Positions 40,854-59,056 are shown, numbered from the stretch's first letter. The stretch is DNA of 64,000 bases from an uncultured delta proteobacterium (GCA_963803975.1 CAWDOY010000048.1:1-64000); one strand, 5' to 3'. Notes: a model not told the origin generated them from the sequence alone. Numbers and translations are program-made.

Positions 40854-40916
40854 ATCTGGAACTCAGGAACTCATGAAGGTAAGAATAAAAATTTCCTGAT
40901 TTCTCGAGTTCCAGAT
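40854..40916. repeat. Small inverted-repeat element (ATCTGGAACTC...GAGTTCCAGAT)
   Basis: 11-bp perfect terminal inverted repeat; related copies at 46047-46215 and a half copy at 22369-22384. Confidence 0.7.
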
Positions 40917-40993
40917 TGAAATTTCTTTGCATATTTACAAGGAATATAGTCTTACCGATCAATCCCGATTCCCCGATTCACCCATTCACCGAA

Positions 40994-41251
40994 TTAACCC
41001 ATCACTTCCGCACCGAGCAGCACGCCTTTGGGCAGCTTTGGCGGCGCAGGCGAAATTTCGATATACTTGATGTTGCGCACGGGAATGATCAGCAGGCGTC
41101 CTTCAACTTCGGCCATGATGCGGTCGGCTTCAAGCGCCTTTTTTATCGTTGATGCAATCTCGATGGGATCGTTACCAGCCTGCCGCGGCCAGCGCAGCGT
41201 AAGTTTCGTCTTGTCCATGAAGTAGATGGTGCCATATACGGTTGTTTCCAT
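40994..41251 (-). CDS. Small hypothetical protein
   Basis: SD AAGGGAG; 85 aa ending IPVRNIKYIEISPAPPKLPKGVLLGA. Confidence 0.65.
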   Translation of the reverse strand: METTVYGTIYFMDKTKLTLRWPRQAGNDPIEIASTIKKALEADRIMAEVEGRLLIIPVRNIKYIEISPAPPKLPKGVLLGAEVMG

Positions 41252-41330
41252 GTCTGGTCTCCCTTTGCTGTTCATCGTTCTATTTTGCGCGCCCCTCTGC
41301 GAGGCGGTTTAAAAACTATTCTGAGAATGG

Positions 41331-41813
41331 TTATTTGATCAGCGGTATTTTTGCGGCAAGCTCAAATCTAACCATCGCGTTAATCTTACTTTCAAGCTGC
41401 AGGTAGCGGGTGACCTTTTTGACCGGCAGCGTCTTGCGGAGCGTGCGAAAATAGAGCTCCTTGAGCTTCAGCTGGTCCCGCTCAATTGCCAGATATTCAT
41501 CAACCATTTTTACGGCATCCGGATCAGACAAATTCTTATAGTTCTTTGCGTAATCATCAATCAGTTTTATAAGACGGTCGTTTATCTTCTGCAGGTCAAA
41601 TTGATAGCTGTTATAATACGGCCAGAATTCTTTTCCTTCCGCTTCAGTCAGCTGCAGGTATTCTGCGATGTAAGCCTTTTTGTCCGCCTGAAGCGCATCT
41701 CTGAGGGCATCCATGCTGCCGGTCTGTTCTTCCGCCGTAACAGGCAATGCCGCCGGGATCAGCAGCATCAAGACTACTGCGGTCAACAATTTGGTTCTGC
41801 AGATTTTTATCAT
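41331..41813 (-). CDS. Exported helical protein (Spy/CpxP-like pattern)
   Basis: Signal peptide; ADKK.YIAEYLQLTEAEGKEFWPYYNSYQ and RYLQLESKI. Confidence 0.7.
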   Translation of the reverse strand: MIKICRTKLLTAVVLMLLIPAALPVTAEEQTGSMDALRDALQADKKAYIAEYLQLTEAEGKEFWPYYNSYQFDLQKINDRLIKLIDDYAKNYKNLSDPDAVKMVDEYLAIERDQLKLKELYFRTLRKTLPVKKVTRYLQLESKINAMVRFELAAKIPLIK

Positions 41814-41850
41814 AAAGGATTCTCCGGTTATCCAGTGCTCCCGGGCTCCA

Positions 41851-43004
41851 CTATTTTTTAAAGGGCGAGGCAACAATCACATAGGTTGTTTTGCCTTCAT
41901 CAGTGACTTTGCGGTAATACACCAGATCACGCTGATAGTAGGTGCGGCCCTCCACTTTTACCGCTACAGCATCTTTGGGCAGTTCAGACACCTCGATCCC
42001 AAAAGGGGGATTAACCACCACATAAACATTTTTTCCGTCGCGCTGTTTGATCATATAAAAGGTGCCGTCACTTACATAATAGTAGGTCTGGCCGTTTGCA
42101 GTGATGGTCTTGTATCCTGCCGGCAGCGCAGTCACTTCATGGCCAGCGGGTGTCGAGACTTTTACATAACCGGTCTCACCCTGGTTGGAGACCTGGGTGT
42201 ACCATTGACCGTCGCTCACATAATATGTGGTTGAGCTCACTACAACCGGAGCGGGTACTATAACAAATGTGGTAGCAGGGTAGTACCAGCGGTTATAGTA
42301 ATACGAGTTATCGTGATACCAGTCATCCCAGTCATCCCAGTAGTCATCATACCTGTCGTTGAGGTAATCCTGGCGATTTTCCTGGAGTCCTCGTGCGCCG
42401 GCATACTCGCCGAGGCTGGAGTCCTGGATATTCTGGCGGCGTTCCTCCCTGTTTGCGGGCCGGTCACCTTGACGTTCCTCGCGAGTTGCCTGGCGTTCAC
42501 CCTGGTTCTCGGTGCGGCCTGTTTGACGCTCTTCTTTGCTCGTATCCCGTTCGCCCTGGCGGGTGGTTCGTGTCCGTGGTCGCGCTCATCCTGCCGGGCG
42601 GTGCGCTCTGTAGTGCGTTCAGTTTGTCGTGTTGTCCTGTCAGTGGCGCCTGTCTCGCGCCTTCCCTGCAGCCCGGAAGTATCTGAGTTCCGCACCGAGC
42701 CGTAATCCCCGCGCTGCACGTCCCGGCTGCTCTGCCGTGAGTCGAATGAAGAGCGCTGCCCACTGCCCATGCTCCGGTCGCCTCCGTAGCCTCCCGACTG
42801 CCTGACCGATCCGTGTGATCCGCCGCCGGAAAACCCGCCGCGCGACCGCCGCCGCCGAAACCTCCTCCACCGCGGCCACCACCACCGCCTCTGCCACCCG
42901 CCACCACCTCTGCCACCGCCACCACGGGCATCAGCGTCATAAGCAAGGCAGAAAAGAAAAATGCCTGTAAATAATAACACCGAAATAAACATTATTTTTT
43001 TCAT
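41851..43004 (-). CDS. Exported Gly/Arg-rich protein with DUF6515-like C-terminal domain, multiple frameshifts
   Basis: Signal peptide ending ADA; RGGGG repeats and R/T/E/Q-rich linker; C-terminal V..LP.GY..I..NGQTYYY repeats (ORF 41851-42240). Confidence 0.6.
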
Positions 43005-43034
43005 GGTTGTCTCCTCCCTTGTAAAAAGCGTGTT

Positions 43035-43821
43035 CTACTCTTTATCAGAAGCTTTTTTAGTGCGCTTCTTTACCGGGAGAAGCGATATCTTTTTTGCTCC
43101 TTCAGGCGCCTTGAATGCAAACGTATCCTCTGGCATCTGAGGAAGCGCTGTGAAGCTCTTGAGCACCGCAATGTACTGCGGTGACCCCGGGCGCTGCTTA
43201 TACGTTATGACAATTTTTCGCAGCTGCGGCACATCCCCGGCGTCAACCCATATCTGCCAGTCAATGTTTTTTTGTGTCGCTGCGATATGGTGGCATTTTA
43301 TACCATCTGCATAGTGAAGGCCCAGGTAGCGGCAGGTTTTTGCATTTTTTATCAGTACGGAATACAGGTCATCGGAGAGCAGGTCTGCAAGAGGCGTGGT
43401 CACGCCGTATTTATCAACCAGCATGTCCATGGTCTCGCCAATGGTGCCGGGAGCAGCGACCTGGCCGTAGACATTGTTAGTCGCGGTCGAGCAGGGTAAA
43501 GGTTTTGTCGTCTTTCCAGATGGTAGTGTTGGTAATATCGCCCGTTGACTCAATCCAGAATTGTTTAGGCTCGCTTACCTTCAGCTTTCGGATGTGCGAA
43601 TACTGAATCTTTTGCCCGGACTTGAGCACCTCGTCCATAGTGTCAATGATCTCCACGCTGGCATTGATAGCCTTCTTTTTTTGTTCATTCAGCGCCTGGA
43701 GGATTTTCTCCGCCTGCGGATCAATGGCCGGGCTAGCAGCCTTTGACTGCCCCCAGCAGGTGCCAATAAATAGAGGTACTATAAATACCAACAAAAATAC
43801 TGTTTGCACAATGCGTTTCAT
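43035..43821 (-). CDS. DUF2092 family exported protein, frameshift near 43480
   Basis: IDPQAEKIL, GQKIQYS, APGTI, PLADLL, CHHIAATQKNIDWQIWVD and PGSPQY. Confidence 0.8.
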
Positions 43822-43943
43822 ACGACAACTCCTTTTTATAAAGTTAAATGTGATTAATAAATCTATATTGTTCAAGACGGGCCTGGTGAAGCTCTGCTGT
43901 TGATAGCTGATTTCTCTCTGCCACGGGCGGGAAACGGTAGTGC

Positions 43944-46041
43944 TTAAAAATTCCAGAATGAGTCTATCTCTTCGTCGGTAAAATCCCAGACCGCATTGTG
44001 CGGCGGCACCGGTTCTTTGAAAAATTCCGGAAGGCGGTCGTCTTTATTGGTGAATCCGGCTGCCAGGTTGAATTCATGCTCGGTGAGAAGAACCTTCCGT
44101 CCCAGTGGCGCGCCATTCTTCGGCAGTTTTGTTCAGCCCATCCTTTGCATTAAGCATGTCAGCTAAAAGTGATGCCACTTTAGGATTATCTAATGCCGCG
44201 AATCCGACAAATACACAAAGACCGGTACTGTCCAGGTATGTAGTGCCGATCTGCAGCCTTCTTGACAGCTCCACCTGCCCTTCCTTCTTCAGGGGATCAA
44301 CAAAACCGCCAACTTTCAGGATATTTACCGGGATACAGTACCCTGCCGTGTGGTCACTGCCCATGGTTGTCGTTGCATAGGTGATGCCCATCCCTTTAAC
44401 GGCGCGCGGGTCATACGCTGAAAGCCCCTGATTTTTAACAACCGGTACTCTGGTAATACCATGGGCCCTGCCGACTGCTCCGGCACCGGCGCCGATAGTG
44501 CGGCCCAGGGGTGTGCCGGCTCCGATTTCTTTCAGCAGCCGCAATGCGCCAGGTCCGTCACCAAAGGCAATGATGCCTGCTTCCATGACGACCCCCATGG
44601 CAACCACTGTTTCAATCGAGTCAATACCGATATCGTCCATAATATGGTCTGCTTCGGCGATGATATCCAGATCATCAATACAGCAGTCGGCCCCGAAACC
44701 CCAGATGGTTTCAAATTCAAAACCAGAGGTCACATAATTGCCATCCTTATCATTGTATACCTGGGAGCATTGAATAATACATCCCGTATGGCAGAAATGA
44801 TGGGGCCTGCCTTTGCGCGCAATAATAACGTCCCGCAGGGTTTCTCCGCTTATTTTATTAGCTCCGGCAAATTGGCCTTCCCGGAAATTCCTGGTCGGCA
44901 GCCCTCCCGATTCATTCATGATATTCACCAGCACATTGGTGCCGTACAGCTTCAGCGACTCACCGCTCACGGGATGGGCCAGCACCGCCTTTGCAAACGC
45001 ACGCGCAGAAATTTTAAATTTCTCCTGATCAACTATCGGTACGCCGGGGCCATCAGCAGGGTCAATGGTGATGTACTTAATTTTTTTGGAGCCCATAACC
45101 GCGCCCAATCCGCCGCGGCCATGGCTGCGAATATTGCCATCAGGATCCTTCACCGAGATATTGGCCGCTGCCAGGCACATTTCGCCTGCCGGGCCAATGG
45201 ACAGAATACCAGTTTTATCCCCATGTTTTTTAATAAGGGTTTTCATTACTTCATAATTCCATTTACCCACTAACTCTTTCTCTTCTCGAATCGTAATCCC
45301 GTTCTTGTCAACATGGAGACTGTAAAACGTGTCTTTCTCAGGCAGGCCTTCAATAATGAGGGCCTTAATGCCCAATCGGGCGAGGCACTGGGCAGCAGTG
45401 CCGCCGGCGTTACTTTCTTTGATGGTGCCGGTCAGCGGGCTTTTGGCTCCGGCAGAAAGCCGCCCCGAGTTTGGGCACATGGTCCCGGCGAGCAAGCCGG
45501 GAGCAAAGATAAGCTTATTGTCCTTTCCCAGCGGATCACAGGTTGGCTTTACTTCCTGTGCCACAAAGGTTGAGGTCAGACCTCTGCCGCCAAGGCCTTT
45601 CCATTTCTCGGGCACATCCTCAACTTTTGCCGTGAGTGTTGACATGTCTACGCGATAAATTTTGTCTGCATGAACTTTTTCCGGAATAATCATTTGTTGC
45701 TTGTAGATGGCCTGGCCTTTATCTGTCACGGGCGGGAAATACTGATTCTCCATGGCAAGACACTTTTTAGGACAGATTTCAACACAGAGATTGCAGGCGC
45801 AGCATTTGAGACGATCTATCTGCCATTCCTTGATAGCTTTGGTGACGACAATAGAATGGGTCGGGCACCGCTTGCCGCACAGGCCGCAGAAAATACAATC
45901 GTTAATAGTAATTTCAACTCTGCCCCTGGTAATGGGGGTATACACCCGCTTGCGCTGCGGATACATAAGCGTCGCAGGCCCGGTGAACAGGTTCCGCAAC
46001 ACGGTTTTTGACATGGTAAAAAATTTCATAATCCAGTCCAT
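43944..46041 (-). CDS. EchF-like 2x[4Fe-4S] domain in one frame with an aldehyde:ferredoxin oxidoreductase (AOR family); frameshift near 44105
   Basis: N-terminal PATLMYP..RG, CIFCGLCGKRCP and CCACNLCVEICP; then AOR motifs LGGRG, KSPLTGTIKESNAGG, GRGGLGAVMGSK, CHTGCIIQC, EFET, DDIGIDSIE and DSTGLCVF. The alternative frame ends FNLAAGFTNKDDRLPEFF...FWNF at 43944. Confidence 0.85.
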
Positions 46042-46046
46042 AGTTT

Positions 46047-46215
46047 ATCTGGAACTCAGGAACTCAGTAGAAATGAAAATAAAATTATGCTATCTGATCT
46101 CAAGAAAATCAAAAAGAATTGTCATTACAAAAATTCAGGTTCACTGATTATTAACTGAATCCTGAAATTCCAGTATTCGAAATCTTTTTATTTTTATGAG
46201 TTCTGAGTTCCAGAT
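46047..46215. repeat. Inverted-repeat miniature element between echE and echF-aor
   Basis: ATCTGGAACTCAG...CTGAGTTCCAGAT 13-bp terminal inverted repeat around an AT-rich core. Confidence 0.7.
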
Positions 46216-46246
46216 TCAATTTTTATTTTTCATCATCAGCCTGCTG

Positions 46247-47326
46247 CTACCGCTCCGTGCAGCTGATACATGGGTCAAGGGTTAGAATGATATTCGGAAC
46301 ATCCGCGACCTGCGAACCCTTCAGCACTGCGATCATCGCCGGGATATTGCTGAAGGTGGGGGTTCGCACCCGGAACCGCTGCAGGAATTTTGTGCCATTG
46401 GCTTTCACATAATGGATCACTTCACCCCGTGGCTGCTCGATGCGGGAAAAGTACTCGCCATTCGGCGTGCCCTTGACCTTGACATCAAACGGCCCATCGG
46501 GAATTTTTTCTGCTGCCTGGCGGATCAAATCTATGGATTGAAAGATTTCTCGGATTCTCACCAGGCACCGCGCATAGCAGTCTCCGGAGTTTTCAACCAT
46601 TGGCTCCAGCTCAAGGTTTTTGTACGCGGAATAGCCGATTTTTCGCATGTCGCTGGCATACCCGCTGGCCCGCAGCATGGGTCCGACACACCCGAGGCGA
46701 TAGGCATCTTCTTTGGAGATATGCCCTACGCCGACCAGCCGGTGCTTGACCGAATAGTCATTGATGAATACGTCAGTGAGTTCATGCAGTTCCTTCTCCA
46801 TGGCGAGTAATCTGGCTGTAATTTCATTTAATTTACCCGCTTCAATGTCACGCTTTACTCCGCCAACCTTGTTCATGCCGAAGATCACCCGACCACCGGT
46901 TGTTTCTTCAATGATGTCGAGAACCTTCTCCCGTATTCGGAGCGATTGCATGAACAGGCTCTCAAAACCGAAGGCATCAGCTGCCACGCCGAGCCAGAAG
47001 ATATGGCTGTGCAGCCGCCCCAGCTCCGCCCAGATGACCCGCAGATACTGGCAGCGCTCCGGCACCTCAATAGCCATAATCTCTTCCACTGCCTGGCAAT
47101 AGCCCATGCTGTGCATGAAACTGCACAGACCGCAGATCCGGTCTGCAACATAGGCATAGTCCATAAAATCCCTTTGTTCCACCAGCTTTTCCAGGCCCCG
47201 GTGGACAAAGCTTATGGAAGGGATGGCATCGACAATCAGCTCATCCTCGGTGATAAGCTCAAAATGAATCGGCTCGGGAAGCACCGGGTGCTGCGGTCCG
47301 AAGGGAATTACATTGGTACGAGCCAT
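46247..47326 (-). CDS. echE: Ech [NiFe]-hydrogenase large subunit
   Basis: PFGPQHP, HRGLEK, L1 motif RICGLC and L2 motif DPCISCTER at the very C-terminus; 359 aa. Confidence 0.92.
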   Translation of the reverse strand: MARTNVIPFGPQHPVLPEPIHFELITEDELIVDAIPSISFVHRGLEKLVEQRDFMDYAYVADRICGLCSFMHSMGYCQAVEEIMAIEVPERCQYLRVIWAELGRLHSHIFWLGVAADAFGFESLFMQSLRIREKVLDIIEETTGGRVIFGMNKVGGVKRDIEAGKLNEITARLLAMEKELHELTDVFINDYSVKHRLVGVGHISKEDAYRLGCVGPMLRASGYASDMRKIGYSAYKNLELEPMVENSGDCYARCLVRIREIFQSIDLIRQAAEKIPDGPFDVKVKGTPNGEYFSRIEQPRGEVIHYVKANGTKFLQRFRVRTPTFSNIPAMIAVLKGSQVADVPNIILTLDPCISCTER

Positions 47327-47793
47327 TGAATGCTACTCCTTTTTTTCCTGGGCTGACAATCAGCGGCAGCGGCCGACGGCTGCTGTGCCGGTTCATCCTG
47401 CTTCAGGGCAGCGGCTTTGGGCTGCTTAGGCGGCTCAGGCTTCGGCAGATTTTCGATGCTGAAGGGCGTTTTAATCGCGGTGCGGTAAAACGCGCCTTTG
47501 TAGTCAACGCTTATATTCTTAATGTTCAGGCCAAACAGGTCATTGATTTCATTCTCATATAAAAAAGCATTCGGGTAGATAACACTGATGCTTTGAATCT
47601 CATCCTGCTGCTGCACGGTGATGCGCAGGTTTTTAAAAAGATAGTCTTTATCGAACGAGTAGTTCAGTTCATAGGCGTCGGCAAGCGTGGTGCAGCCGAT
47701 CTGTACCATGCGATAGCCCTGGGCAAACAGGTCAGAGACAGCTCCCAGCAGAGCGTCTTTTTCGATAGGGATTATTTCCTGCGGTTCACTCAT
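47308..47793 (-). CDS. echD: Ech hydrogenase subunit D (NuoC-like); C-terminus possibly frameshifted
   Basis: GYRMVQI, ELNYSFDK and SISVIYPNAFLYENEINDLFG; position in operon. Confidence 0.85.
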   Translation of the reverse strand: MSEPQEIIPIEKDALLGAVSDLFAQGYRMVQIGCTTLADAYELNYSFDKDYLFKNLRITVQQQDEIQSISVIYPNAFLYENEINDLFGLNIKNISVDYKGAFYRTAIKTPFSIENLPKPEPPKQPKAAALKQDEPAQQPSAAAADCQPRKKRSSIQWLVPM

Positions 47794-47815
47794 AGGTTAA
47801 TACCGATACTATTTG

Positions 47816-48268
47816 TTATGCTTTTATAGATTGTTGTTGGGTGTTTTTCTGCTGCGCGTATTTTTCTTCAAGAATCCCGCACGCTTTTAATACGCCGTCG
47901 ATAATCGCTTCAGGCCGCGCGGAGCAGCCGGGGACATACACATCCACAGGCACTACCTTGTCAGCGCCGCCCAGCACGTTGTAGCAGTCCTGGAACACGC
48001 AGCCGGAACACGCGCAGATTCCCACTGCCACCACGACCCGGGGATTGGGCATCTGCTCATAGAGCGTCTTTAAAACATGCTTGCTTTTCTCATTGACCGA
48101 GCCGGTCACCAGCAGTATGTCGGAATGTTTCGGGTTGCCGGTGTTGATAATGCCGAACCGCTCCAGATCATACAGGGGGGTCAGGCAGGCAATAACCTCT
48201 ATATCGCAGCCATTACAGCTCGTTGCATTATAATGAAACACCCATGGTGAACGTTTAAACCAGGCCAT
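47816..48268 (-). CDS. echC: Ech hydrogenase small subunit (NuoB-like)
   Basis: RSPW, SCNGCDIE, GNPKHSD, GICACSG and YVPGCSARPE. Confidence 0.92.
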   Translation of the reverse strand: MAWFKRSPWVFHYNATSCNGCDIEVIACLTPLYDLERFGIINTGNPKHSDILLVTGSVNEKSKHVLKTLYEQMPNPRVVVAVGICACSGCVFQDCYNVLGGADKVVPVDVYVPGCSARPEAIIDGVLKACGILEEKYAQQKNTQQQSIKA

Positions 48269-48318
48269 ATTATAAATCCTAATTTGTAAACCCTAAAACC
48301 CGAACTTCAGCCTAAACC

Positions 48319-49200
48319 CTATTTAATCAAATGCAGCACAATAATATTTGACACCCCGGCCACGGCAGTAAACAGCCATGAGCTCAGGAATGTAAGCTGC
48401 CACTTGAACCGGGAATAATTGTTATCAATAAAAATCTCAAACAGATACGCCGCTATAGTCAGCACAATCCCCAGCCAGGGGTTGAAGGCAAAGAACAGAT
48501 ATACGATACCCAGGAGCAGCACATTTTCATACCAGTGGGATATTTCTATAAGGGCCAGGGCAGGGCCGGAAAATTCCGTGGTGAGCCCGCGCACGATTTC
48601 CTGATGGGCGTGATGCGATATGGAAAGGTCAAACGGTGATTTTCTGAACTTGATGGTGAGAATATACAAAAAGCCGGCAAACACGCCCGGCAGAGCCAGG
48701 ATAAGCGGTTTCTGGTACATCGCGATATCAGCGACCTTGAAGCTTCCGGTCACCATATACATGCCGACAGCCACAAGAATGACCATGGGCTCATAGGCCA
48801 CCATCTGGATTATCTCACGCTCAGCACCCAGGTGGCTGTAGGGTGAGCTGACCGAGTACCCGGCCAGCACAAAGAACGTCCCTGCCGTGGCCAGGCCGAA
48901 GATCATCAGCAGGATATCAGCACCGCAAAAAAACAGAGCGCCGGAAAACACGGTAAAGACAAAAAACAGAATTATATTGAAGTTCTGAAATTTATTAACA
49001 ACGATGCGCTCCTTTTGAAACAGTTTAAACACATCATAAAAAGGCTGAAGTATTGGCGGGCCAAACCTGCCCTGCAGCCGGGCGGTTAATTTGCGGTCGA
49101 TCCCGGCCAGCACGCCGCCAATGAACGGTGCGATAAGGACATACGCCAGCATCCGCTCAGCAAGGCCCAGGGATTGAAACAACTCAAACAGTGTCTTCAT
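48319..49200 (-). CDS. echB: Ech hydrogenase membrane subunit (NuoH-like)
   Basis: GIDRKLTARLQGRFGPPILQPFYD and KFRKSPFDLS.SHHAHQE. Confidence 0.92.
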   Translation of the reverse strand: MKTLFELFQSLGLAERMLAYVLIAPFIGGVLAGIDRKLTARLQGRFGPPILQPFYDVFKLFQKERIVVNKFQNFNIILFFVFTVFSGALFFCGADILLMIFGLATAGTFFVLAGYSVSSPYSHLGAEREIIQMVAYEPMVILVAVGMYMVTGSFKVADIAMYQKPLILALPGVFAGFLYILTIKFRKSPFDLSISHHAHQEIVRGLTTEFSGPALALIEISHWYENVLLLGIVYLFFAFNPWLGIVLTIAAYLFEIFIDNNYSRFKWQLTFLSSWLFTAVAGVSNIIVLHLIK

Positions 49201-51096
49201 AAGGCTGCAACCCCGAACATGATGAAAATCAAGGTCAGAGAAACTAACACACCGACATTACATAATATATCTTCGCCGAAAGTACTTCGTCAGGTAGTAG
49301 TTTTTAAGGTCAGCTGTCTGTTTATGATCCATGGGGCCTTCAAAGCTGACATTGTCAACATTTGCTCCCCCGAGATACGTTCCCACCCGCCTATAATTCT
49401 TATTAACGTATGCATAGTACATGAGCCCCAGGGGAAGAATGATTAAAATACCAATCATGATGACGTAAATAACAAGTATATTGAAGGTATCAACCACAGG
49501 AGATTTCCCGAACACGTCCTTGAGATAGGGATCTATGATGCGGGAGGAGATAAACGGAAACCCAAGGCACACGACAACGGTGGCAATTGCTAAAATAGCC
49601 AGGGTAAACTGTTCCCAGCGACTCACCGGATGCTCCACAACCTGGGTCTCGCCATATTTAATGGACATGATTTTACCCATCCATTTGGTCCAGAAAAAGA
49701 CCGTGGCTGCGCTGCCATAGGCTAACAGTATTGCCATTCCCGGATTGCTATCGATAAATGCTTTGAGTGTTACGAACTTGCTGATGATCATGCCGAAGGG
49801 GGCAAGAAACATTCCGGCCATGCCGATCATCATGACTGCGGTGAGCTTCGGCAGGCGCATAATCAAATAGTCCATATCCTCTATGTCACGGCTGCCCAGC
49901 CTGTATTCGATAATCCCCACGCAGAGAAACAAAAGCGACTTGGCCACCGCGTGGAAGATAATCAGCAGCAGCGCTGACCATACTGCCGCATCGGTATTGA
50001 CTCCTGCGCAGGCGACAATCAGGCCGAGGTTGGAGATGGTTGAGTAGGCAAGCACCTTTTTAGCGTTGCTCTGGGAAATGGCAATCAAGGCCGTAACCAG
50101 GAAGGTAACCCCGCCGACGAGCATGAGCATTTTTGCCGCCACCGTGTTCTCCAGCACCGGCGCCACCCGCAGGATGATATAGACTCCTGCTTTCACCATG
50201 GTGCTTGAATGCAGCAGCGCTGACACCGGCGTGGGGGCTACCATGGCGCCGGTCAGCCATGAGCAGAACGGGAACTGGGCTGATTTCACCAGGCCGGCAA
50301 AGGCAATGCACACGGCAGGAAGCAGGACAAGGCTCTTATCAGCTTGCAGCAGCTTATCCAGCTCCATGATTCGGGCAGAGCTGTACAGATACACAATACC
50401 CACCGCAAACGCCAGCCCGCCCAGCAGGTTCATATTCAGTGCTCTGAATGAGCTTTCAATGGACTGCTTGTCATTCCGGTAGCCGATGAGAAGCGCCGAG
50501 CAGATGGTGGTTATCTCCCAGAAGAAAAAGACCCACATGAGGTTATTGGAAAAGACGATGCCGAACATGGCGGACAGGAACAGGTAGATGAGGAACGCGA
50601 AATACCTGCGCCGGTCTTTTACTTCCTTATGATGCTCGTGATATTCGGGGAGATAGCCGATCGCATACAGGCAGATGGCGCTGCCGATAATGCCGACAAT
50701 CAGCGCCATGATGATGGAGAACTTATCCACGAACAGGCTGTGCTCAATGTGCATCGAGCTGCCGGAGGTAAACTCAAAGGTCAGCATAATCACTGACTGC
50801 ACGACTACGAGCAGCACGGGGAGATATCTTTTTGCCCGGATGGAAATATAAATAATAAAGCCTGCAATGAAAACTTCTATCGCAAGCATGAAAATATTGA
50901 TCAGATGGCTCTCAAGCTGGAAATATGCAGGCCCTTTATCAAGGTAGGTGATAAGCAGATAGATGGGTACTACGCACAGGACAATAATGGCAATAACGCC
51001 GATAATTCTTCTAAGCGTGACCAAAGCAGAAGGCAGCACCGCTGCTAATATCGCGATGCACAAGGGGAACACTATCAGAAAAATCAACGCATTCAC
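49197..51096 (-). CDS. echA: Ech hydrogenase antiporter-like subunit (NuoL-like); frameshift near 49275
   Basis: FFWEITT, KSAQFPF..WL.GAM.APTPVSALLHSSTMVKAG and LAYSTISNLG. The alternative frame ends in a TM helix whose TGA overlaps the echB ATG. Confidence 0.9.
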
Positions 51097-51271
51097 TGCA
51101 ACGTCCTCATATACGGTAAATGATTACCTGTTGTTAGACGATTTGACACAGTTGTCTGCAGCTGCTCCCGGTTAAATTACTATAGCACAAAATATCTTTA
51201 TCATCTGTTTAAAGAACATAATTAAAGAGAAAATATGCATGCACCATCTGAATTTAATCTGCACCCGCCTA

Positions 51272-53557
51272 TTAACTTGTCTGAATCATTTCTTTAAGTA
51301 TTTTGACTGTCTGTTTGGCTGCATCTTCCGGCTTTAAGCCTTTGTTGGAGATACCGCACACCACCTTGACAATATCGTGGTCACATTTTTTATCAGCCCA
51401 GACCTGTGCTTTGGGCGCTGCGATATACACTGAAAACGCATTCTGGCCGGTCCCCGGTCGCTCGCCGATGATGTGCAGCACAATCCGTTTTTTAGCGGGG
51501 TCGGATTTTTCGAACAGGATGTTGCCAACCTCGATAACCGGCCCGCACGCGGCCGCTGGTCACGAGAATATTTTTTTCATCAACCGTTAAGCCGGCTTCC
51601 TGCAGGTCTTTCTTCACCGCAGTGAGGTATGTTACGACCTGGCCTTCGCTCATGATTGCATTGGCATTTAACCCGTCAGAGATGACAATCTGCACATCCG
51701 GGTCTTTGCCTGCCCACGAATCCCGCAGCTTTTCAAGGGTTGCAACCGACTGCTCGTTCAGCTTTTCACCGGTGGGGGGCTGCACAATATAGTTTTCCCG
51801 GTCCTTTGCCTGAGTGGCAACCTGCACTGCATTGGGAACCGTCTTGATAAACTCAGGGGTAAATTCCGCCCATATTGATTTCTTGCCGTCGTCGTACAGC
51901 TCCCGCACTTTTTTATCCAGTTCCGGGTTCAGATCCCAGATGTTTTTGCCATACCCGGCAGCAAGCGCTACCCGCTGGCCGGTCTTCAGCCAGGTGCCAT
52001 AGATATCATCAAACTTCTGTTTGCCTTCGGCATATATTTCCTGTTCAGAGCGTTTATCGCCTTTGGCTGCGCAGTACTGATAATAAACCCAGATGGGGTC
52101 TCCGAAGTGCTTTGTTGGTTTGCCGTTCTTATCAATGATCTGGATTCGTTTATAGAATTCCCACATGGCATCATTGATTTTATAGCCGAATTTTTCCCGT
52201 ATGCGCACATGATCCTGAAACGCAGTGGTCAGATAGCCCAGCATGGGGTCATTCCTGGTGGGAAGGGCCATGATATAGGCGGGATTTGCCGGCATAATCT
52301 GATCCTGGCACCACTCCAGATCATCGAGGCTCACCGACATGTGCAGGGTTGAGCAGATATCAAGGCCTATGGCAAGCCCGTGCAGTTTACCCATGGCTAT
52401 ATCTTCCAGGCAGCAGCGCACCAGCTGCTCTCTGGTTCTGAAAACTTCCGGCCCGATGAAACCGGCAACATCGTTGACGTGTGTCCAGGCGCCCTTGGGC
52501 TGGACTTTCCCCAGGCCGTTTTTAATCGCCCGGGAAAATCCGTACTTGCGGGATTCAAGCACGACCATGTCCACCCCTTCGGCTGTTCCATTGGTGAAGT
52601 CAGCACCCTGGCCGGTCTCAAAATACATCCCGTAGCGCTGCCCTTTGCGTGATTTTGCATGGTCAATCATCTTGTCCACGCTGATGTCAAACACCTTGTT
52701 GGCCGCATCAGTTCCTGCCAGGCTCTGGAACATAATGGCAACCAGCTCCGGGTTTTTGTCGGCAACGGCCCGCTGCACGTCAACATGGGCCAGCACACAC
52801 CAGGGAATAATATCTTTAAGGCCAAAGGTATCCACCACATCCTTGAGGGTTTTTTCCACCCGGGCAGTACTTTCCACGGTTCCATCTACCGGGTTTGTGC
52901 CGATGACTATATCGCCCACCGCATAGGAGAAGCCGTCAAATGTCTGCCAGCGAATTTCCTCGGGATCATCAGTGGCAGAATTTGGCTGGATGCGGGCGCT
53001 CATGTACCCTTTTGCGCCGATTTTGCTGCCGGGCAGCGGATTAAAAATCTTTTGCCCAACTGCAATCAGCTCCTGATTGCTCATGAGCTTGACCACACAG
53101 GCTATTACATCACTATCAAGGCCCGGCATGATTGCCTTGATCTCTTTTTCCGGTTTGGTCAGGATAAATGTTTTTAGCTTTCCAATAGTCCAGCTTTTTA
53201 TCTTCTCGTACTGTGCTGCGTCTGTTGTTTTCCAGATTCCTTTCTGCAGGGTATCCTCCAGAAGGGGGCGCTCATGCAGGTCTTTTATTTTGGTGTTTGC
53301 AAGCAGCTTCCGGGCATTCTCCCTGCTCACTTCATCATCAGCTCCCACGCCGATTGTTTTATCTCCCTCCTTGAAGGCATTTGCCGCACCGACTATTTGC
53401 TTATACAGTGTCGGGTCAAATGAACCCTTGACCTGCTGAATATATTGAAAGATATCTTCTCCGGGTTTTACATCCTTAATGGTTATGGCGCTGCAGTAGG
53501 TACTCAAGCAAAAGATACCAATGGCGATCAGTGCTGCTATATAATGTGTCGTTTCAT
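51272..53557 (-). CDS. eutBC: Fused ethanolamine ammonia-lyase EutB-EutC with apparent N-terminal signal peptide; frameshifts near 53540 and 51535
   Basis: EutB motifs ANAFKEGD, ARIQPN, GTNPV, FQSLAGT, YFETGQG, VNDVAGFIGPE, LED..MGKLHGL and DPMLGY; EutC motifs PDVQIVISDGL, GRVRAG and IIGERPG. SD GGAGGG then ATG at 53557. Confidence 0.88.
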
Positions 53558-53652
53558 ACTCAATACCCTCCTGAACATAGCAATTATTTAATTAAATAGT
53601 ATAGAAAACTTCCGTTACAATTTTATTGCATGCCAGTTTGCATTTCTCTGTT

Positions 53653-54048
53653 TTAGTGCAGCAAAGTGGGCGAGATATACGTACCACCCTTTAAAACTTC
53701 CTCCACTGCTGCAAGGAGGTCGGTGGCTGCCATTCGCTTGAGCACGAAACCTTTCGCCCCTGTCGCAAGGCATTCATTCACCACTGTCTGTTCGTCATGA
53801 ACGCTCAGGATGATGGACTTGAGTTCCGGATTCAATCTCTGCAGCAGCCTGACAACGTTTTCCCCCGAAGATATTGGAAATGACAGATCTGCAATGATGA
53901 GATCAAACTGGGTACCGGTTACGGCTTCAGTAAGAGAGTGCTCGTCTGCTACCATGAGCATCGTGCACATCGTTTCCTTAAAAATAAGACGAACGACACC
54001 CACAAATGTTGGATGGGTATCGGCAAGCAGGATTCGTTCTGACAGCAT
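53653..54048 (-). CDS. Stand-alone response regulator receiver protein
   Basis: ILLADTH, DLIIADLS, LSVHDE and GAKGFVLK; no output domain. Confidence 0.85.
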   Translation of the reverse strand: MLSERILLADTHPTFVGVVRLIFKETMCTMLMVADEHSLTEAVTGTQFDLIIADLSFPISSGENVVRLLQRLNPELKSIILSVHDEQTVVNECLATGAKGFVLKRMAATDLLAAVEEVLKGGTYISPTLLH

Positions 54049-54193
54049 GGATCAACCTAACTGTTTCTATACCGGTGAACCATCAACGGGAGATAGTATC
54101 TGCAAGCGTATAGGGGGGAGTATAGAACAACAGGGTAAAAGGTCAACTAGGAGAAGTCCTAGTTTTGCGGAATATTTTTACTGGGTGAGAGAA

Positions 54194-54835
54194 TCAGGGC
54201 TCTGCAATGCCCTGCTTCACAGCGTACCGGACCAGTTCTGCCGTTGTTTTGATTCCGAGGTCTTCCATCATCCGGTACTTATGGTATTCTACGGTTTTTA
54301 TTGATATGTTTAAAATGGAAGCAATTTCTTTTACAGAATGACCCTCTGCAAGCAACTGCAGCACCTCACGCTGCCGCGAAGAAAGGCAGAGGGACGCATC
54401 GGTCCGCGATTTGGGTCCAGATTTGCAGGAATGCAGGAGTTTTCCGGCAATCAGGGGTGTTATATAAATTCTTCCCTTGAGCGCCTCCTGGATGGCTGCG
54501 ATAAGTTCATCGGGGGCGGAGTGCTTTAGAACATAGCCCGAGCCGCCTGCATTGAGGGCGTTAACCGCATAGGCCACATCGGGATGCATCGTGAGAAATA
54601 CCACCTTGATCCCCGGATGCCTTTTTTTTATCTGCCGTACGGCTTCTATGCCATTGAGAAGCGGCATGGATATATCGGCAACGATAACATCGGGCTGGAG
54701 TTTTTGGGCAGCAGCTACAAGTTCACGACCGTCCTCAACGACACCGGAGATGTCAAAGTCCGCGCAGAGCAATCTCTTCAGCCCTTCAACGAAGATTTTA
54801 TGGTCGTCAGCTATCAGCAGCCGCGGCTTGTTCAT
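54194..54835 (-). CDS. NarL/LuxR-family DNA-binding response regulator
   Basis: ADDH, DISMP and LSSRQREVLQLLAEGHSVKEIA..LNISIKTVEYHK. Confidence 0.95.
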   Translation of the reverse strand: MNKPRLLIADDHKIFVEGLKRLLCADFDISGVVEDGRELVAAAQKLQPDVIVADISMPLLNGIEAVRQIKKRHPGIKVVFLTMHPDVAYAVNALNAGGSGYVLKHSAPDELIAAIQEALKGRIYITPLIAGKLLHSCKSGPKSRTDASLCLSSRQREVLQLLAEGHSVKEIASILNISIKTVEYHKYRMMEDLGIKTTAELVRYAVKQGIAEP

Positions 54836-56520
54836 GTGCTTCCCCTAACGGAATGAAGATTTGAATTTCAGTGCCTTTCCCCGGATTTGATTCAACGGCA
54901 ATTGTGCCGTTAACGTGTCGCACCCGTTCTCTCATACTGGACAGACCAATTCCTGCGTTCTGTTTTGCCTTTTTTAAGTCGAATCCGATCCCCTTGTCCT
55001 GTATCAAAAGGCGGATGCCGCCGGAGATGCCATGGAGGTTGATGGAAGCGGCTGTCGCACTTGCGTGTTTAGCAATATTCTGAAGACCTTCCTGGATTAT
55101 CCGGTAAAGGCAAAGCGCCAGGTGCTGGGGAATTAAACCCGGGAGATCAAGTGGTGTGAAGGACAAATCAATGCCGGTTTTTTTGGTAAAGGTGCTGCAT
55201 TCCGCCTGCACAGCCTGAACCAGTCCCAGGTCATCGAGGATGGATGGATGAAGCCGGCGTGACAAGCCATGGACATCGTCGGCCAGATCAGTCAGATTGA
55301 TCCTCAGGGCCTTGAGGGCCTGAACAGTCTGAGGGTCCACAGGGCTCAATTGTTTTTCAATCAGCGCCGCTTCCAGTGCCAGTGCTGCAAGCCTTTGTGT
55401 CAGATCGTCATGGAGCTCCCGGGAAAGCCGCCTGAGCTCTTCTTCCTGGGCGTAGATAATTCTTCCGGTGAGTTCGCTGAGATCCTGTTCATTGCGCCGC
55501 AGGGCATCCTCTACCTTCTTGCGCTCGCTGATGTCCAGGGACACGCCCATCATGCTGAGTGGGTTCCCCGGCGTGGTTCGCTGCAGCTGGCCGCGGGAGG
55601 CGATCCAGCGGACAGTCCCGTCGGCCCTCAGGACACGGTACTCGATGGTAAAATCTGTTTCTGTCTGCATGGCCTGCTGAATGGTCTGGTGAATCCGTTC
55701 GCTATCCTCGGGATGGATACACTGCAGGAAGCTCTCGTACTGCAATTCATCGTGCGGGAGAAAGCCGAACAGCTCACGTGTTTTGCCGGTGGCCCAGACC
55801 TGTCCGGTATCCAGTGACATACTCCACATGCCTGCGTTTGCTGATGCCGCAGCAAGGCTCAGTCGCGCCTCACTTTCTCTCAATTCCAGTTCAGACATTT
55901 TCCGGCTGAGCGCATTAGCAGAAAATCTGGGAGATAAGGCTTAATTGCGTTACCATCGCCTGCGGCCATTCCCGCTCTTCCCGCATCATGGCGAAGGTTA
56001 TACAGCCTATGACTGCGCCTCCTACCACAAGGGGAATTATTGCGTCGGCCTTTGTTCCAAAACGTCTTATCATCTCGGCATCATGGCTCGCCTCCGGGGG
56101 GAGCTCTTCAAGCCTTGAAAAGAGAACCGTTTTGCCATGCTGGAAGACCTGGTTGAAGAGCCAGGGGAAATCCGTTGTTACTTCCAGTTGTATTTGAACC
56201 GGGGAGCCATCAGATGCCTGCGCTGTCCATTTTCCGTTTAACGAAAAGCTGGTATTTGCAGGTTTTATAATAGTCTGAACATCCTCATGCTCGTAAATGT
56301 GAGTGAACACATATCTGCCGGGCTCATGCTTAAGCTGCTGCCATATGGTAGACCGGTCGATGCCGAAGAATTCACAGATTCTGCGCTGGGCAGCCTCGAT
56401 TTCTTGATCAATCCGTTCAGCGGGGAGGTTGATAAAGTGAGTGGAAATTTCGGCCAGCAGCGTTTCGAAACGCAAGCGGTCTTCGAGTTCTGCGAGAAGT
56501 TTGGTTTCTAATTCAGACAT
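54807..56520 (-). CDS. Cytoplasmic GAF-PAS sensor histidine kinase (HisKA_3), frameshift near 55920
   Basis: GAF-like N-terminal part (ORF 55915-56520); PAS (IHPED, EYRV..DG..RWI); RELHDDL, QEGLQNIAKH, DKGIGFD and GIGLSSMRER. Confidence 0.85.
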
Positions 56521-56729
56521 TCGGTAATTCCATTATAATGAGCTAACGTAAAATAGCAGCTGGCTTCCCGAGATTAAGAGCCTGATCTCTACAACAGGAA
56601 TTTATAAATCTAAGGACGCAGGCATTGAAGATGGCATTTGTATATATATATCATTTCATATCACAACCTTCCAGCGATGCATATGAAATGTCAAAATAGC
56701 ATTCCAGCTTTGACCCGCGCCACGATCGC

Positions 56730-58190
56730 ATGCGTCTTTTTTATGGTCGGGCGGTTGCCGGGTGGATCGTCAATCTAAGGAAGCTGGGCCGACTGCAGCC
56801 GGAAACGCGTGCAGTTCTGGGTGAGACCTTCCGCACGTCAATAAAAAACGGTCCGCGGCTTGCAGACCCCAACACGTACGCGGAGTTGATGATTGCCGCG
56901 GAGACGGATGTGAGCGAGCTGCGCAGCCGGAGCATGCGCCGCGGCATCGGCGCGCCGTTTATCGGCTGGAACGAGAACCGGAAGGCCAGCAGTCAGGACC
57001 GGTACTTTCCTCTGGTGGGCCTGGCCCAGGCGCTGAGCGCAGTGGCGTTGTTTTCCAATACGCAGGATGGCAGCAGGAAGGTTGAGCTGGCACTCTACGA
57101 TTCTCTCGCTCAGGAGACGGTTGAAATAGACGGGGCCGCGATTCCTTTGGCGGCCGATTTCACTGCCGCTTTCGCTTACCAGATATCAAAATCCCAGCTG
57201 CAGCGCTTCAACCTGATTCACACCCTGGATATTGAAGCCGGACTGCGTGCCACCGGCTTTTACATGCTGCAGCCATTTGATCCCGATAAGATACCGCTTA
57301 TAACCGTGCACGGGCTGTTCTCCAGCCCGCTCAACTGGGTGGACGTGACCAACGATCTGCTGGGAGACGCGGAGATCCGCGCCAATTACCAGATCTGGCA
57401 CTTCTTCTATCCTCCCGGGCTGCCGATCCTCATTTCGGCCAGCATGTTCAGGGACAAGATTGACGAGTTGTTCCGCACCTTCGATCCTGACCACCGCAAC
57501 CCTAAAATGGATGACGTGATTGTACTGGCCCACAGCATGGGCGGGCTGTTGACCCGTACGGCGGTTTCAGAAAGTCATGACGCGCTGTGGCTGAAAATGT
57601 TCGGCAAGACGGAACGCGAGCTGTCTTTGCCGGCTGACCTCGGTGCCGAGCTGAACAAACTGCTCAACTTCAGACGCAGGGAGTTCATTAAACGGGTCAT
57701 CTTTGTGGCGGTGCCGCATCGCGGCAGCAAGATGTCCAAGGAGCTGATCGGCCGCATCGGCCGCAGCCTGGTGAAACTGCCGGCGCTGATCGTCCAGAAT
57801 CTTAATCAACTCCGCAGCCGTCTGGAAAAGTTCATCGAGCCGCAGTCGCTCACGGCCCTGGTGTCTCCGGAACAGCTGAACAGCATTCGCGGCCTCTCCC
57901 CGGATAGCGCCCCGATTCAGGCGCTCTCCAGGATTGCGATTGACCGCGGGGTGAAGTTTCATTCGATTATCGGCACGGAAAGCAAGACCGAAGACGGCGA
58001 GCCCTTCGACGGCGTGGTGACGTACTCAAGCGCTCACCTGGAGGGTGCCGTATCTGAGCTGACAGTGCCCTGCGATCACTCAGCGCACACTAATCCGCTG
58101 GTCATTCTCGAGATTGAGCGCATTCTCAGGCTGCATCTGCGCGAATACGAGGCGCGCACAGGAAAGAATGGGGGAAAACCTTTATCTTAA
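56730..58190 (+). CDS. Alpha/beta-hydrolase paralogous to 17665-19548, apparently lacking its N-terminus and signal peptide
   Basis: PFDPDKIPLITVHG, AHSMGG, VPHRGS, DGVVTYSSAHLEG and CDHS. Confidence 0.8.
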   Translation: MRLFYGRAVAGWIVNLRKLGRLQPETRAVLGETFRTSIKNGPRLADPNTYAELMIAAETDVSELRSRSMRRGIGAPFIGWNENRKASSQDRYFPLVGLAQALSAVALFSNTQDGSRKVELALYDSLAQETVEIDGAAIPLAADFTAAFAYQISKSQLQRFNLIHTLDIEAGLRATGFYMLQPFDPDKIPLITVHGLFSSPLNWVDVTNDLLGDAEIRANYQIWHFFYPPGLPILISASMFRDKIDELFRTFDPDHRNPKMDDVIVLAHSMGGLLTRTAVSESHDALWLKMFGKTERELSLPADLGAELNKLLNFRRREFIKRVIFVAVPHRGSKMSKELIGRIGRSLVKLPALIVQNLNQLRSRLEKFIEPQSLTALVSPEQLNSIRGLSPDSAPIQALSRIAIDRGVKFHSIIGTESKTEDGEPFDGVVTYSSAHLEGAVSELTVPCDHSAHTNPLVILEIERILRLHLREYEARTGKNGGKPLS

Positions 58191-58269
58191 TAAAGTGTCT
58201 TTCAACAACTATGAAATGTCAAAATAAAGACCCGTACTCCACTCGCCCGTAATATACTATCAGCCTAAC

Positions 58270-58307
58270 AAAAAGAGCAGGGCCATTAACTCGACTCTGC
58301 TCTTTTT
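58270..58307. terminator. Bidirectional terminator between convergent genes
   Basis: AAAAAGAGCAGGG...ACTCTGCTCTTTTT. Confidence 0.7.
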
Positions 58308-58406
58308 GTCTATAAAAATGATTGTCGATATTATTGTGGTTGCTGACAAGTCACAAAAATTACAGACTTCTACTATTTGCCGCTTTATTTACCCCGCCTC
58401 ATTAAA

Positions 58407-58706
58407 TTATTTATTAAATATACTAAAGAACTTATCAAGCCCGCTCTTTTCCAGTTTTGCCACAGTGTTAAGTTCTCCCGCATCAAGCCAGATCCCTTCA
58501 CATTCAGAACACTCATCTATCTTTATTCCTTTATAATCAATCTCTATCAGTTCCATTCCGCACTTGGGACATTGCATATAATGAAGTTTTTTCAGCCTTT
58601 GCTTTTCTTCTTCTGCAAGTCTCTTGTGCTTTTCTTCCTCAATCTTCTTCTTTTTTTCAAACTCCATTCTTGCAATATACTCGTCCTCTGTTTTAGTTGG
58701 TATCAT
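58407..58706 (-). CDS. zf-TFIIB-type zinc ribbon protein
   Basis: CPKCG..L and IDECSECEGIWLDAGEL. Confidence 0.88.
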   Translation of the reverse strand: MIPTKTEDEYIARMEFEKKKKIEEEKHKRLAEEEKQRLKKLHYMQCPKCGMELIEIDYKGIKIDECSECEGIWLDAGELNTVAKLEKSGLDKFFSIFNK

Positions 58707-59056
58707 TGATAGTACCTCCTTGTTTTGTTAAAAAGGGATTTCAGGATATATGATGCTTATTTATGACTGTACATTACATTATCGCTTTTCTTCATTGAGC
58801 AGAACTTTATACAGCAATGAAAGAAATGTCAATGCGCCTTTACCTGTGCAGACATTGTGTGGGAGATTAAAGGAATAAAACTGCAGACTATGTATCAACA
58901 CCCTGCGAAGTCGTTCAAGTTAACTCACTTCAGACTATAACATGATGTATTCTTTGGGTCTGCGGAAAATAACACGACGATTGTAAAAATATAAAAAACA
59001 GGGGTAAATAGAATGAGGGCCCCTGCTTTTAATTGGTTTTTATGTTGAGAACGCAT

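Follow-up and report, generated by a model that had tools for sequence, protein, structure and literature searches.

A gene block of an uncultured delta proteobacterium that may link a predicted exported ethanolamine ammonia-lyase to hydrogen formation through an aldehyde oxidoreductase fused to Ech hydrogenase

A 64,000-nucleotide stretch of DNA from an uncultured delta proteobacterium (GCA_963803975.1 CAWDOY010000048.1:1-64000, hereafter the window) was found to carry genes for a predicted exported, single-chain, B12-dependent ethanolamine ammonia-lyase (EutBC), for an Ech-type [NiFe] hydrogenase, and for an aldehyde oxidoreductase (AOR) fused to the EchF subunit of that hydrogenase. We consider it rather probable that the products of this block together convert ethanolamine to acetate, NH4+ and H2. 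The window corresponds to contig C48:1-64000 of genome G000 (4.25 Mb, 57 contigs, 98.1% complete). A first-pass annotation of the window had proposed a compact route independent of CoA and of bacterial microcompartments (BMC), in which acetaldehyde formed by EutBC is oxidized by AOR and the electrons are released as H2 at Ech. This proposal was partly supported. Comparison with other genomes favoured its core, because the three units were kept together in at least four gene orders, AOR and EchF were fused, and the genome was found to be without shell proteins, phosphotransacetylase (PTA), acetate kinase and, over the cut-off, iron-containing alcohol dehydrogenase (Fe-ADH). The picture is altered by the probable export of EutBC and by the two-component system, which is not conserved with the module.

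The linkage of the three units was surveyed in 41 genomes (the window's own and 40 relatives), in which a close Ech orthologue was defined by an EchE identity of at least 80%. AOR paralogues occurred in all 41, often more than 20 in number, and fused eutBC was present in 11; a close Ech orthologue was found in four (G000, G036, G029 and G001). In G000, G036 and G029, eutBC, the AOR orthologue and Ech lay within 12 kb, and in G001 echE-echF::aor occupied a short contig, with eutBC on a different one. Loci at which eutBC adjoined AOR without this Ech were found in G031, G023 and G025 and at a second site of G029. Scanning the genomes of 185,579 species with an EchE pattern yielded 80 loci. Among the 25 in which EchE was full-length and shared 72% identity or more with that of the window, an AOR orthologue was present in 8, another AFOR-family gene in 6 and neither in 11; eutBC accompanied 7 of the 8 AOR orthologues, and the eighth contig ended inside aor. 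None of the 29 loci at 52–66% EchE identity (Spirochaetota, FCPU426, Bacillota and Methanomicrobiales) carried either the AOR orthologue or another AFOR-family gene.

The neighbourhood survey recommended by the first-pass annotation bore out the co-location of eutBC, ech and aor, which was observed in at least four gene orders in metagenome-assembled genomes (MAGs) of Thermodesulfobacteriota. The order eutBC-echABCDE-echF::aor was found in the window and in the metagenome contig L097, echABCDE-echF::aor-eutBC in L018 (the G036 locus), aor-eutBC-echABCDEF in L026 (the complete MAG ORM2a, G029), L031, L033 and L106/L107, and echABCDEF followed by a gene for a binding protein and aor-eutBC in L028, L029 and L032. 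In a midpoint-rooted tree of 55 EchE sequences, Thermodesulfobacteriota formed a clade of 27 rows (support 100/100), in which the loci linked to eut and aor occupied basal branches and the Geobacteraceae loci made up a later group; under this midpoint rooting, the tree agrees with an ancient linkage and its subsequent loss or exchange. Six Geobacteraceae loci had a distant AFOR-family gene (625–630 aa) right after echF (L022:11505-13397, L035:11800-13677, L024, L036, L038 and L039). These loci were flanked by genes for pyruvate kinase, glycogen phosphorylase, phosphofructokinase or aldolase, and the arrangement may represent a GAPOR-like link from glycolysis to H2. It was also observed that ech-aor of G036 was 90–91% identical to that of the window, though G036 is filed in another family of the same class, and that its EutBC carried a Tat rather than a Sec signal and was only about 70% identical to the window's, a pattern which hints that some of the module was transferred or recombined.

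The echF::aor gene occupies positions 43944–46041 on the minus strand (open reading frame (ORF) as assembled, 44074–46041) and matched Pfam Fer4, AFOR_N (5.4e-65) and AFOR_C (5.8e-60). Its product consists of a NuoI/EchF-type 2x[4Fe-4S] domain (residues 1 to ~100), a tail of ~25 residues and a full AOR. NCBIfam NuoI-type models matched residues 5–123, and AFOR_N and AFOR_C together residues 127–647, with the tail of free EchF (about residues 100–130) serving as the linker to AOR. The fusion was read as a single ORF in L097 (694 aa), in L018 (692 aa), in protein cluster P0005 (697 aa) and, apart from an indel towards the 3' end, in the window. In the PDB, the AOR part matched 9mqx_D (1.9e-83) and 1aor (5.9e-74), and residues 10–111 of the fusion matched 6cfw_N (MbhN of the Pyrococcus membrane hydrogenase), the nearest solved relative of the EchF domain. 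The DSTGLC motif, the glutamate of FEFET and the histidine of GSDHT aligned with 1aor; the latter two would be the active-site residues.

This fusion was found to be rare. When residues 1–200 were searched against a collection of 5.8 billion protein clusters, only two further clusters with the fusion (P0005 and P0006, the latter of 692 aa) were present among the best 120 of 1484 matches, the others of these being 5 polyferredoxins and 113 unfused AORs of 575–577 aa. No other NuoI-AOR fusion was seen among the best 150 of 8960 matches in a library of 1.84 billion representatives, in which fused and unfused forms may share a representative because it is clustered at 50% identity. Those 150 matches included one polyferredoxin and other natural fusions of AOR, namely with Fe-ADH and with an OMP-decarboxylase/HUMPS-like domain (P0130, P0173, P0191, P0201, P0212; P0272, P0274). 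Elsewhere on the window's contig, a free-standing paralogue of the fused AOR, with which it shares 82% identity, stood back to back with another AOR (G000:C48:79191-80765 and 81341-82912, locus L093), near genes for an aquaporin, an IS200-like transposase and a radical-SAM/SPASM protein.

In loci with the unfused order aor-eutBC-ech, echF was followed by a gene for a ferredoxin of 64 aa with the pattern CxxCxxC...CP...C (L026:11593-11787, L031:10075-10269 and L107:8877-9071). This gene was absent from all three fused loci, nor was it found at that place in the unfused loci L033 and L029. Fusion and ferredoxin look like alternative ways of connecting AOR to Ech, and we regard this alternation as the strongest single piece of evidence for AOR as the electron donor of this hydrogenase. 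In the fused form, the single reading frame predicts that AOR is physically attached to the electron-input subunit of the hydrogenase. A complex prediction for the unfused AOR and EchF of ORM2a, run without controls, gave a score of 0.00 and counts neither way.

All six Ech subunit families were matched (Pfam and NCBIfam) in the order echABCDEF, the sixth being the N-terminal domain of the fusion, and the same order was found in about 60 related loci. The membrane subunits are encoded by echA (49197–51096; assembled ORF 49258–51096), which is NuoL/MrpA-like and antiporter-type (Pfam Proton_antipo_M and Proton_antipo_N), and by the NuoH-like echB (48319–49200; Pfam NADHdh, 1.3e-41). EchA showed 15 hydrophobic segments by hydropathy, and echA overlapped echB in L097. 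They are followed by echC (47816–48268; Pfam Oxidored_q6), a NuoB-like small subunit with one [4Fe-4S] cluster, the NuoC-like echD (47308–47793; Pfam Complex1_30kDa) and echE (46247–47326; Pfam Complex1_49kDa and NiFeSe_Hases), the [NiFe] large subunit. EchE (359 aa) had no C-terminal extension, and its RICGLCSFMH and terminal DPCISCTER motifs, which hold the two nickel-binding cysteine pairs, were intact. The cysteines of EchC were found in SCNGC, GICAC and PGCSARP, with no Tat signal. Both CxxCxxCxxxCP motifs of the EchF domain were present (CIFCGLCGKRCP and CCACNLCVEICP), and their 8 cysteines were invariant in 35 EchF sequences. Judged by these motifs, the hydrogenase parts look functional, and the HypD maturation gene was found in the genome.

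The eutBC gene was assigned to 51272–53557 on the minus strand (ORF as assembled, 51492–53507), with EutB and EutC in one reading frame (Pfam EutB, 2.6e-148, and EutC); in the intact 763-aa orthologue of L097, the match covered positions 37–226 of the 235 in the EutC profile. The SARIQPN, GTNPVD, YFETGQG and GLDIC motifs aligned with those of Escherichia coli and Listeria EutB (PDB 3abo/2qez). The spacing of about 175 bp that the first-pass annotation gave for eutBC and echA was correct once the frameshift in eutC was read through (51097–51271, 175 nt). After allowing for a 1-nt deletion at 53540, the protein starts at 53557 with MKRHII..AALIAIGIFCLSTYCSA, a Sec-type signal, followed by ITIKDVKPGED. 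Inspection by eye and by hydropathy showed an export signal in all 33 readable N-termini of EutBC orthologues, in each of which a positively charged beginning and a hydrophobic core preceded a small-x-small site; the conserved sequence (I/V)x(I/V)KDVKPGEDVF came after this site. Seven of the 33 were of the twin-arginine type (S/T-R-R-x-F-L), for example SRRKFLAMMGAAG. The AOR consensus begins with MAEKIYRV and has no signal, and EchC and the other peripheral Ech subunits are likewise without one. EutBC thus departs from the two-subunit cytoplasmic or microcompartment type in being one chain with a Sec or Tat signal and no shell genes, and this fused form with its export signal is a clade apart from the characterized enzymes. 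The ethanolamine lyase step is probably periplasmic, with acetaldehyde made there, because of this conserved export signal. An exported EutBC would also be the simplest explanation for the lack of a microcompartment, transporter and EutA, simpler than a compact route in the cytoplasm.

The clusters of relatives additionally encode a periplasmic binding protein of the PotD type and a beta-rich protein with a signal peptide, which has a terminal Phe as outer-membrane barrels do. In G000 these two genes accompany a second, broken eutBC copy on contig C1 (G000:C1:166441-181645, locus L094), which lies in four pieces that are 72–84% identical. Its neighbours encode a porin-like barrel, a BtuCDF-like ABC transporter, a MoxR AAA protein, a DUF58 protein and the PotD-like binding protein, with cbiC ~16 kb away.

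The genome background agrees with the lack of a canonical pathway. As the first-pass annotation had stated for the window, no eutE, eutG, eutD, BMC shell, eutA, eutH, eutR or eutVW gene was found among its 71 scanned ORFs. Search of the whole genome gave no match for BMC, EutH, PTA or acetate kinase and none over the cut-off for Fe-ADH (EutG family); for EutA there was one partial match of 44 positions genome-wide, which is not a credible EutA. The negative result for eutE-type and eutR genes refers to the 71 ORFs of the window, and eutR and eat were not searched genome-wide. Two full-length and two partial Aldedh matches were located on other contigs. Oxidation by AOR is the only evident fate of acetaldehyde, because no acetyl-phosphate route was found. 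Of the accessory genes whose check had been proposed earlier, HypD and CbiC were present, and the matches for tungstate uptake (tup/wtp) were ambiguous.

From these observations we propose the following mechanism. EutBC would be exported, by Sec in this genome and by Tat in some relatives, and would split ethanolamine to acetaldehyde and NH4+ in the periplasm, so that the periplasm would replace the microcompartment and an ethanolamine importer would not be needed. Acetaldehyde would then diffuse across the inner membrane to the AOR domain, held at its cytoplasmic face, and be oxidized there to acetate. The tungstopterin would hand the electrons to the [4Fe-4S] cluster of AOR, from which they would travel over the two clusters of EchF and the cluster of EchC to the [NiFe] site, where H2 would be formed from protons without free ferredoxin; in the unfused relatives, the small ferredoxin encoded after echF probably carries them. 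The oxidation of acetaldehyde with release of H2 is exergonic by roughly –30 kJ/mol, and the drop from acetaldehyde/acetate to H+/H2 is roughly 170 mV. This drop would drive ion export by EchA and EchB, whose coupling to H2 formation would be the sole energy conservation on the route. Ion pumping, the nature of the substrate, the use of tungsten and a syntrophic way of life are all inferred.

Single-base indels were found to break conserved genes of the window at 53540, 51533, 49281, 44107, 43480, 42580/42568 and about 55900. Those at 53540 and 51533 lie in eutBC, the insertions at 49281 and 44107 in echA and aor, respectively, and the indel at 43480 in a DUF2092 gene; a 1-nt indel also splits the GAF part of an upstream kinase from its PAS part, and a DUF6515 gene is likewise broken. 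As assembled, eutBC ends 73 codons early, aor 43 and echA 20, and the start of eutBC is also disrupted. Such frameshifts would suggest a decaying set of pseudogenes in this genome, the more so as the interruptions affect eutBC, echA, aor, the kinase and two genes further downstream and the second eutBC copy lies in four pieces, but we regard this as very improbable. All breaks were isolated 1-nt indels, with no stop-codon substitutions or larger deletions in the coding sequences of ech, aor and eutBC, and breaks of the same kind hit unrelated conserved genes, namely cbiC (3 pieces, G000:C1:196606-197138), glcD and an AI-2E transporter gene. In the independent metagenome contig L097, with 89.7% and 93.2% identity to the window over the two main aligned pieces, the gene order was the same and every gene was whole (eutBC 763 aa, echA 632 aa, echF::aor 694 aa). 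Contigs were also compared from public short-read DNA runs (X1, X3 and X6) and from sediment RNA libraries of one study (X17 and X18). The extra base at 51534 was missing in the X1 contig that held 14.3 of the 22.1 depth and in the one X17 contig covering it, and all five short-read contigs crossing 44105–44107 (X1, X3 and X6) were without the extra base there. The pseudogene reading was rejected on these grounds, that is, indels of 1 nt only which are absent from independent contigs. The indels look like long-read consensus errors, and the module genes were treated as intact in nature because L097 is whole, the short-read contigs lack the extra bases and unrelated genes are similarly broken. 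Any call of a pseudogene in this genome needs checking.

With the genes regarded as intact, other functions have to be weighed against the conversion of ethanolamine to acetate and H2. AOR-Ech might be a general sink that passes electrons from aldehydes (or ferredoxin) to H2 and serves several sources, such as alcohols, other amines and aldehydes derived from amino acids, with eutBC only an occasional neighbour. We consider this unlikely, though it is not without support. The AOR orthogroup (66–82% identity) also occurred in genomes without eutBC (G022, G034, G010, G009 and G017), which, together with the unfused 82% paralogue on the same contig, indicates that AOR is not specific to ethanolamine. 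Geobacteraceae pair this clade of Ech with a different AFOR-family gene and glycolytic genes, and the most similar solved AORs are named general aldehyde oxidoreductases. Nevertheless, eutBC was present at every AOR-Ech locus with enough flank (7/7, plus L097 and L107), and the three units stayed together through at least four rearrangements; the window's genome, moreover, has no other route for acetaldehyde. It seems improbable to us that the exported EutBC-like enzyme acts instead on another vicinal amino alcohol (such as aminopropanols) or on the head group of ethanolamine in bound or polymeric form, in which case AOR would receive an aldehyde other than acetaldehyde. The exported fused clade is only about 35–40% identical to characterized EutB, has ALP at an active-site position where E. 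coli EutB has GMP, and travels with a PotD/PhnS-like amine-binding protein and the porin-like barrel. The four motifs given above align with E. coli and Listeria EutB, however, and Pelobacter carbinolicus, which has the same fused type, is described as growing on ethanolamine (PMC3543383). That the genes are adjacent through inherited synteny and have no functional link, or that the complex runs in reverse, with acetate reduced to acetaldehyde at the expense of H2 or the gradient, was judged highly unlikely. Downstream, several loci likewise share RND efflux genes, which shows that some of the neighbourhood conservation here is non-functional; but the gene order was shuffled while the set was kept, and a gene fusion arose. 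The ammonia-lyase step is irreversible, so the reductive direction would have no use for eutBC.

Several points weigh against the conversion of ethanolamine to acetate and H2 by this block, beginning with the frameshifts that the window's own gene copies carry as assembled and the occurrence of the AOR orthogroup apart from eutBC. Of the 25 close Ech loci, 11 had neither gene nearby, although 6 of these 11 had less than 1.2 kb of flank on one side. Conversely, fused eutBC of a sister class with a predicted export signal (74–78% identity), like the C1 copy, occurred without aor or ech within flanks of up to 10 kb (L098, L100, L104 and L115). The AOR motif CHTGCIIQC has the spacing C-x3-C-x3-C, as against C-x2-C-x3-C (CyaCpigC) in 1aor, and its three cysteines are candidate ligands of the cluster. 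Genome-wide, WtpA was not found over the cut-off, and the PBP_like_2 matches could be TupA or PstS. No periplasmic radical enzyme dependent on adenosylcobalamin is known to us, and loading of the cofactor after Sec export, as well as reactivation without EutA and ATP, would need an explanation. Acetaldehyde formed outside the cytoplasm could also escape by diffusion. Everything beyond the gene calls is deduced from genomic context.

No paper joining ethanolamine ammonia-lyase, AOR and Ech, and none on an AOR-Ech module or an exported ethanolamine ammonia-lyase, was found in the open-access literature and bioRxiv. The closest published case is the cluster with fused eutBC and aorA2 in Pelobacter (Syntrophotalea) carbinolicus. 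In the published account of that cluster (Aklujkar et al. 2012, PMC3543383), eutBC1 and eutBC2 are called an 'unusual fusion' of EutB and EutC, as found here, and the 43-gene cluster contains binding proteins and an aorA gene and no eutA. Genes for a corrinoid ABC transporter and VWFA/ATPase proteins are described as well (PMC3543383), like those of the second locus on C1. The acetaldehyde:ferredoxin oxidoreductase gene aorA2 of that cluster is unfused and, judged by locus tag, ~35 genes away, and P. carbinolicus, which ferments ethanolamine, also has an acetyl-CoA branch, unlike the module described here (PMC3543383). 'Ech' is absent from the main text of that paper, and its account of eutBC notes no export signal (PMC3543383). 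In Thermacetogenium phaeum, an AOR gene lies in the eut cluster, one AOR was detected only in ethanolamine-grown cells, and a hydrogenlyase-type hydrogenase was induced on ethanolamine (Keller et al. 2019, PMC6436200). In contrast to the present block, T. phaeum has a two-subunit EutBC in a microcompartment, an ethanolamine transporter and an acetylating dehydrogenase, and no fusion or adjacency of AOR and hydrogenase is reported for it (PMC6436200). The canonical eut systems of Salmonella and E. coli share the EutB/EutC catalytic core and the conserved active-site motifs with the enzyme described here, which differs in being one chain behind a signal peptide, in a genome without shell, EutH or EutD (PTA).

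The Ech part agrees with the group 4e enzymes of Methanosarcina barkeri and Thermoanaerobacter kivui in its six subunit families and their order and in a large subunit that has both cysteine pairs and ends without an extension, and differs in the whole AOR on the C-terminus of EchF and in the joining of the operon to eutBC. Because EchF carries AOR in this way, free ferredoxin would be bypassed. Two other hydrogenases of group 4 are wired to a substrate-oxidizing enzyme. In the formate hydrogenlyase of E. coli (FdhF with HycBCDEFG, group 4a), a soluble, pterin- or metal-dependent oxidoreductase acting on a low-potential substrate is connected via iron-sulfur subunits to the membrane-bound [NiFe] hydrogenase, and in the CO-dehydrogenase/hydrogenase complex (CooS-CooF-CooMKLXUH, group 4c) the same wiring lets substrate oxidation end in H2. 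Compared with these complexes, the input enzyme here is of the AOR family and not a formate dehydrogenase of the DMSO-reductase family or a CO dehydrogenase; it is covalently fused to the NuoI-like subunit, and the hydrogenase is a minimal six-subunit Ech. We put forward, tentatively and at somewhat less than even confidence, an 'aldehyde hydrogenlyase' as a third kind of hydrogenlyase, in which a tungsten AOR would be hard-wired to an ion-pumping [NiFe] hydrogenase and catch periplasmic acetaldehyde, with energy conservation being purely chemiosmotic and free of substrate-level phosphorylation. In purified Ech of T. kivui, H+ was translocated during the ferredoxin-driven reduction of protons to H2, according to the account of that enzyme (PMC9356269).

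Upstream of eutBC, the minus strand carries genes for a soluble GAF-PAS histidine kinase, with its N-terminal GAF domain at 55915–56520 (Pfam GAF) and its PAS-HisKA_3-HATPase_c part at 54807–55898 (Pfam PAS_3, HisKA_3 and HATPase_c; NCBIfam MctS/UhpB-like), for a NarL/FixJ-type response regulator with a receiver and a GerE helix-turn-helix (54194–54835; Pfam Response_reg and GerE), and for a stand-alone receiver protein (53653–54048; Pfam Response_reg). The co-orientation of these three with eutBC, echA–E and echF::aor described in the first-pass annotation was confirmed, all of them lying on the minus strand at the places given there. The two-component system, which that annotation counted with the module, is not conserved with it; only the GAF-PAS sensor part recurs, in close relatives. 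When the 80 Ech loci were queried with the kinase, the NarL regulator and the receiver, only a short GAF match (L028) and a weak kinase match of 29% (L064) were obtained. L095 and L117 read ...QIFANALSRK... straight across the GAF-PAS junction. In these two loci (L095:250-2300 and L117:445-2490), the same sensor part (GAF 57–81% identical) is joined to a sigma-54 activator and not to a HisKA_3 kinase, which by comparison of the sequences appears to be a swap of output domains upstream of the same operon. The kinase showed no transmembrane segment by hydropathy; being soluble, its sensor would respond to a cytoplasmic signal such as the aldehyde.

Promoter-like sites, as consensus matches only, were located at 54146-54119 (minus) by the receiver gene and at 46112-46076 in the spacer between echE and echF::aor. 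No terminator-like site was seen in either intergenic spacer, terminator counts being equal to those of shuffled sequences, and an Rfam scan of 40000–60000 at E up to 0.1 gave no match, hence no cobalamin or other riboswitch. The AT-rich spacer between echE and echF::aor (46042–46246, 205 nt) is strain-variable: contigs of X1 and X2 have 31 other letters in place of 46067–46202 (136 nt), and the spacer is only 7 nt long in L018. Four other contigs of the genome show matches to short stretches of this spacer, which may thus be a small repeat element or an inserted internal promoter. In both X17 and X18, contigs covered aor, ech and eutBC, one RNA-library contig spanned 50821–51245 and with it part of the eutBC-echA spacer, and 53.6–56.7 kb was barely covered. 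This coverage is a weak hint of expression, as the RNA runs were chosen with 43944–53507, contig depth cannot rank genes and carry-over of DNA is possible.

Downstream of echF::aor lie a frameshifted gene for a DUF2092 (LolA-like) secreted protein (43035–43875, minus strand; Pfam DUF2092 in two pieces; intact in L097, 274 aa) and a split gene for a DUF6515 secreted protein rich in Gly, Ser and Arg (41851–43004, minus strand), placed by tblastn of L097:11358-12509, which has a DUF6515 match. The DUF2092 gene adjoins aor in the window and L097 only, and its product is possibly an accessory of the module. The RND efflux pair (adaptor and AcrB-like pump) is located a few kb downstream, at 35552–39903 in the window, and also, across several unrelated arrangements, in L026, L029, L018 and L014. 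Transposase genes of the IS1182 and IS200/IS605 families were found at 11997–13448 and 19789–20217 of the window.

Membrane lipids make ethanolamine a common substrate in both sediments and guts, and textbook ethanolamine catabolism relies on a protein microcompartment and a CoA-dependent branch that gives ATP by substrate-level phosphorylation. The module suggests a smaller solution in strict anaerobes, in which the toxic aldehyde would be made outside the cytoplasm and burned on a proton-reducing, ion-pumping complex. If the AOR-Ech fusion works as read here, aldehydes would join formate and CO as substrates of hydrogenlyase-type complexes, and the fusion would provide a natural single-polypeptide handle with which Ech could be purified and imaged together with the attached electron donor. 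That an adenosylcobalamin enzyme might work in the periplasm would also become testable in a defined metabolic context. Public runs with near-identical DNA come from freshwater and wetland sediments, and in such sediments the module, if the proposal is true, would supply syntrophic partners with H2 and acetate.

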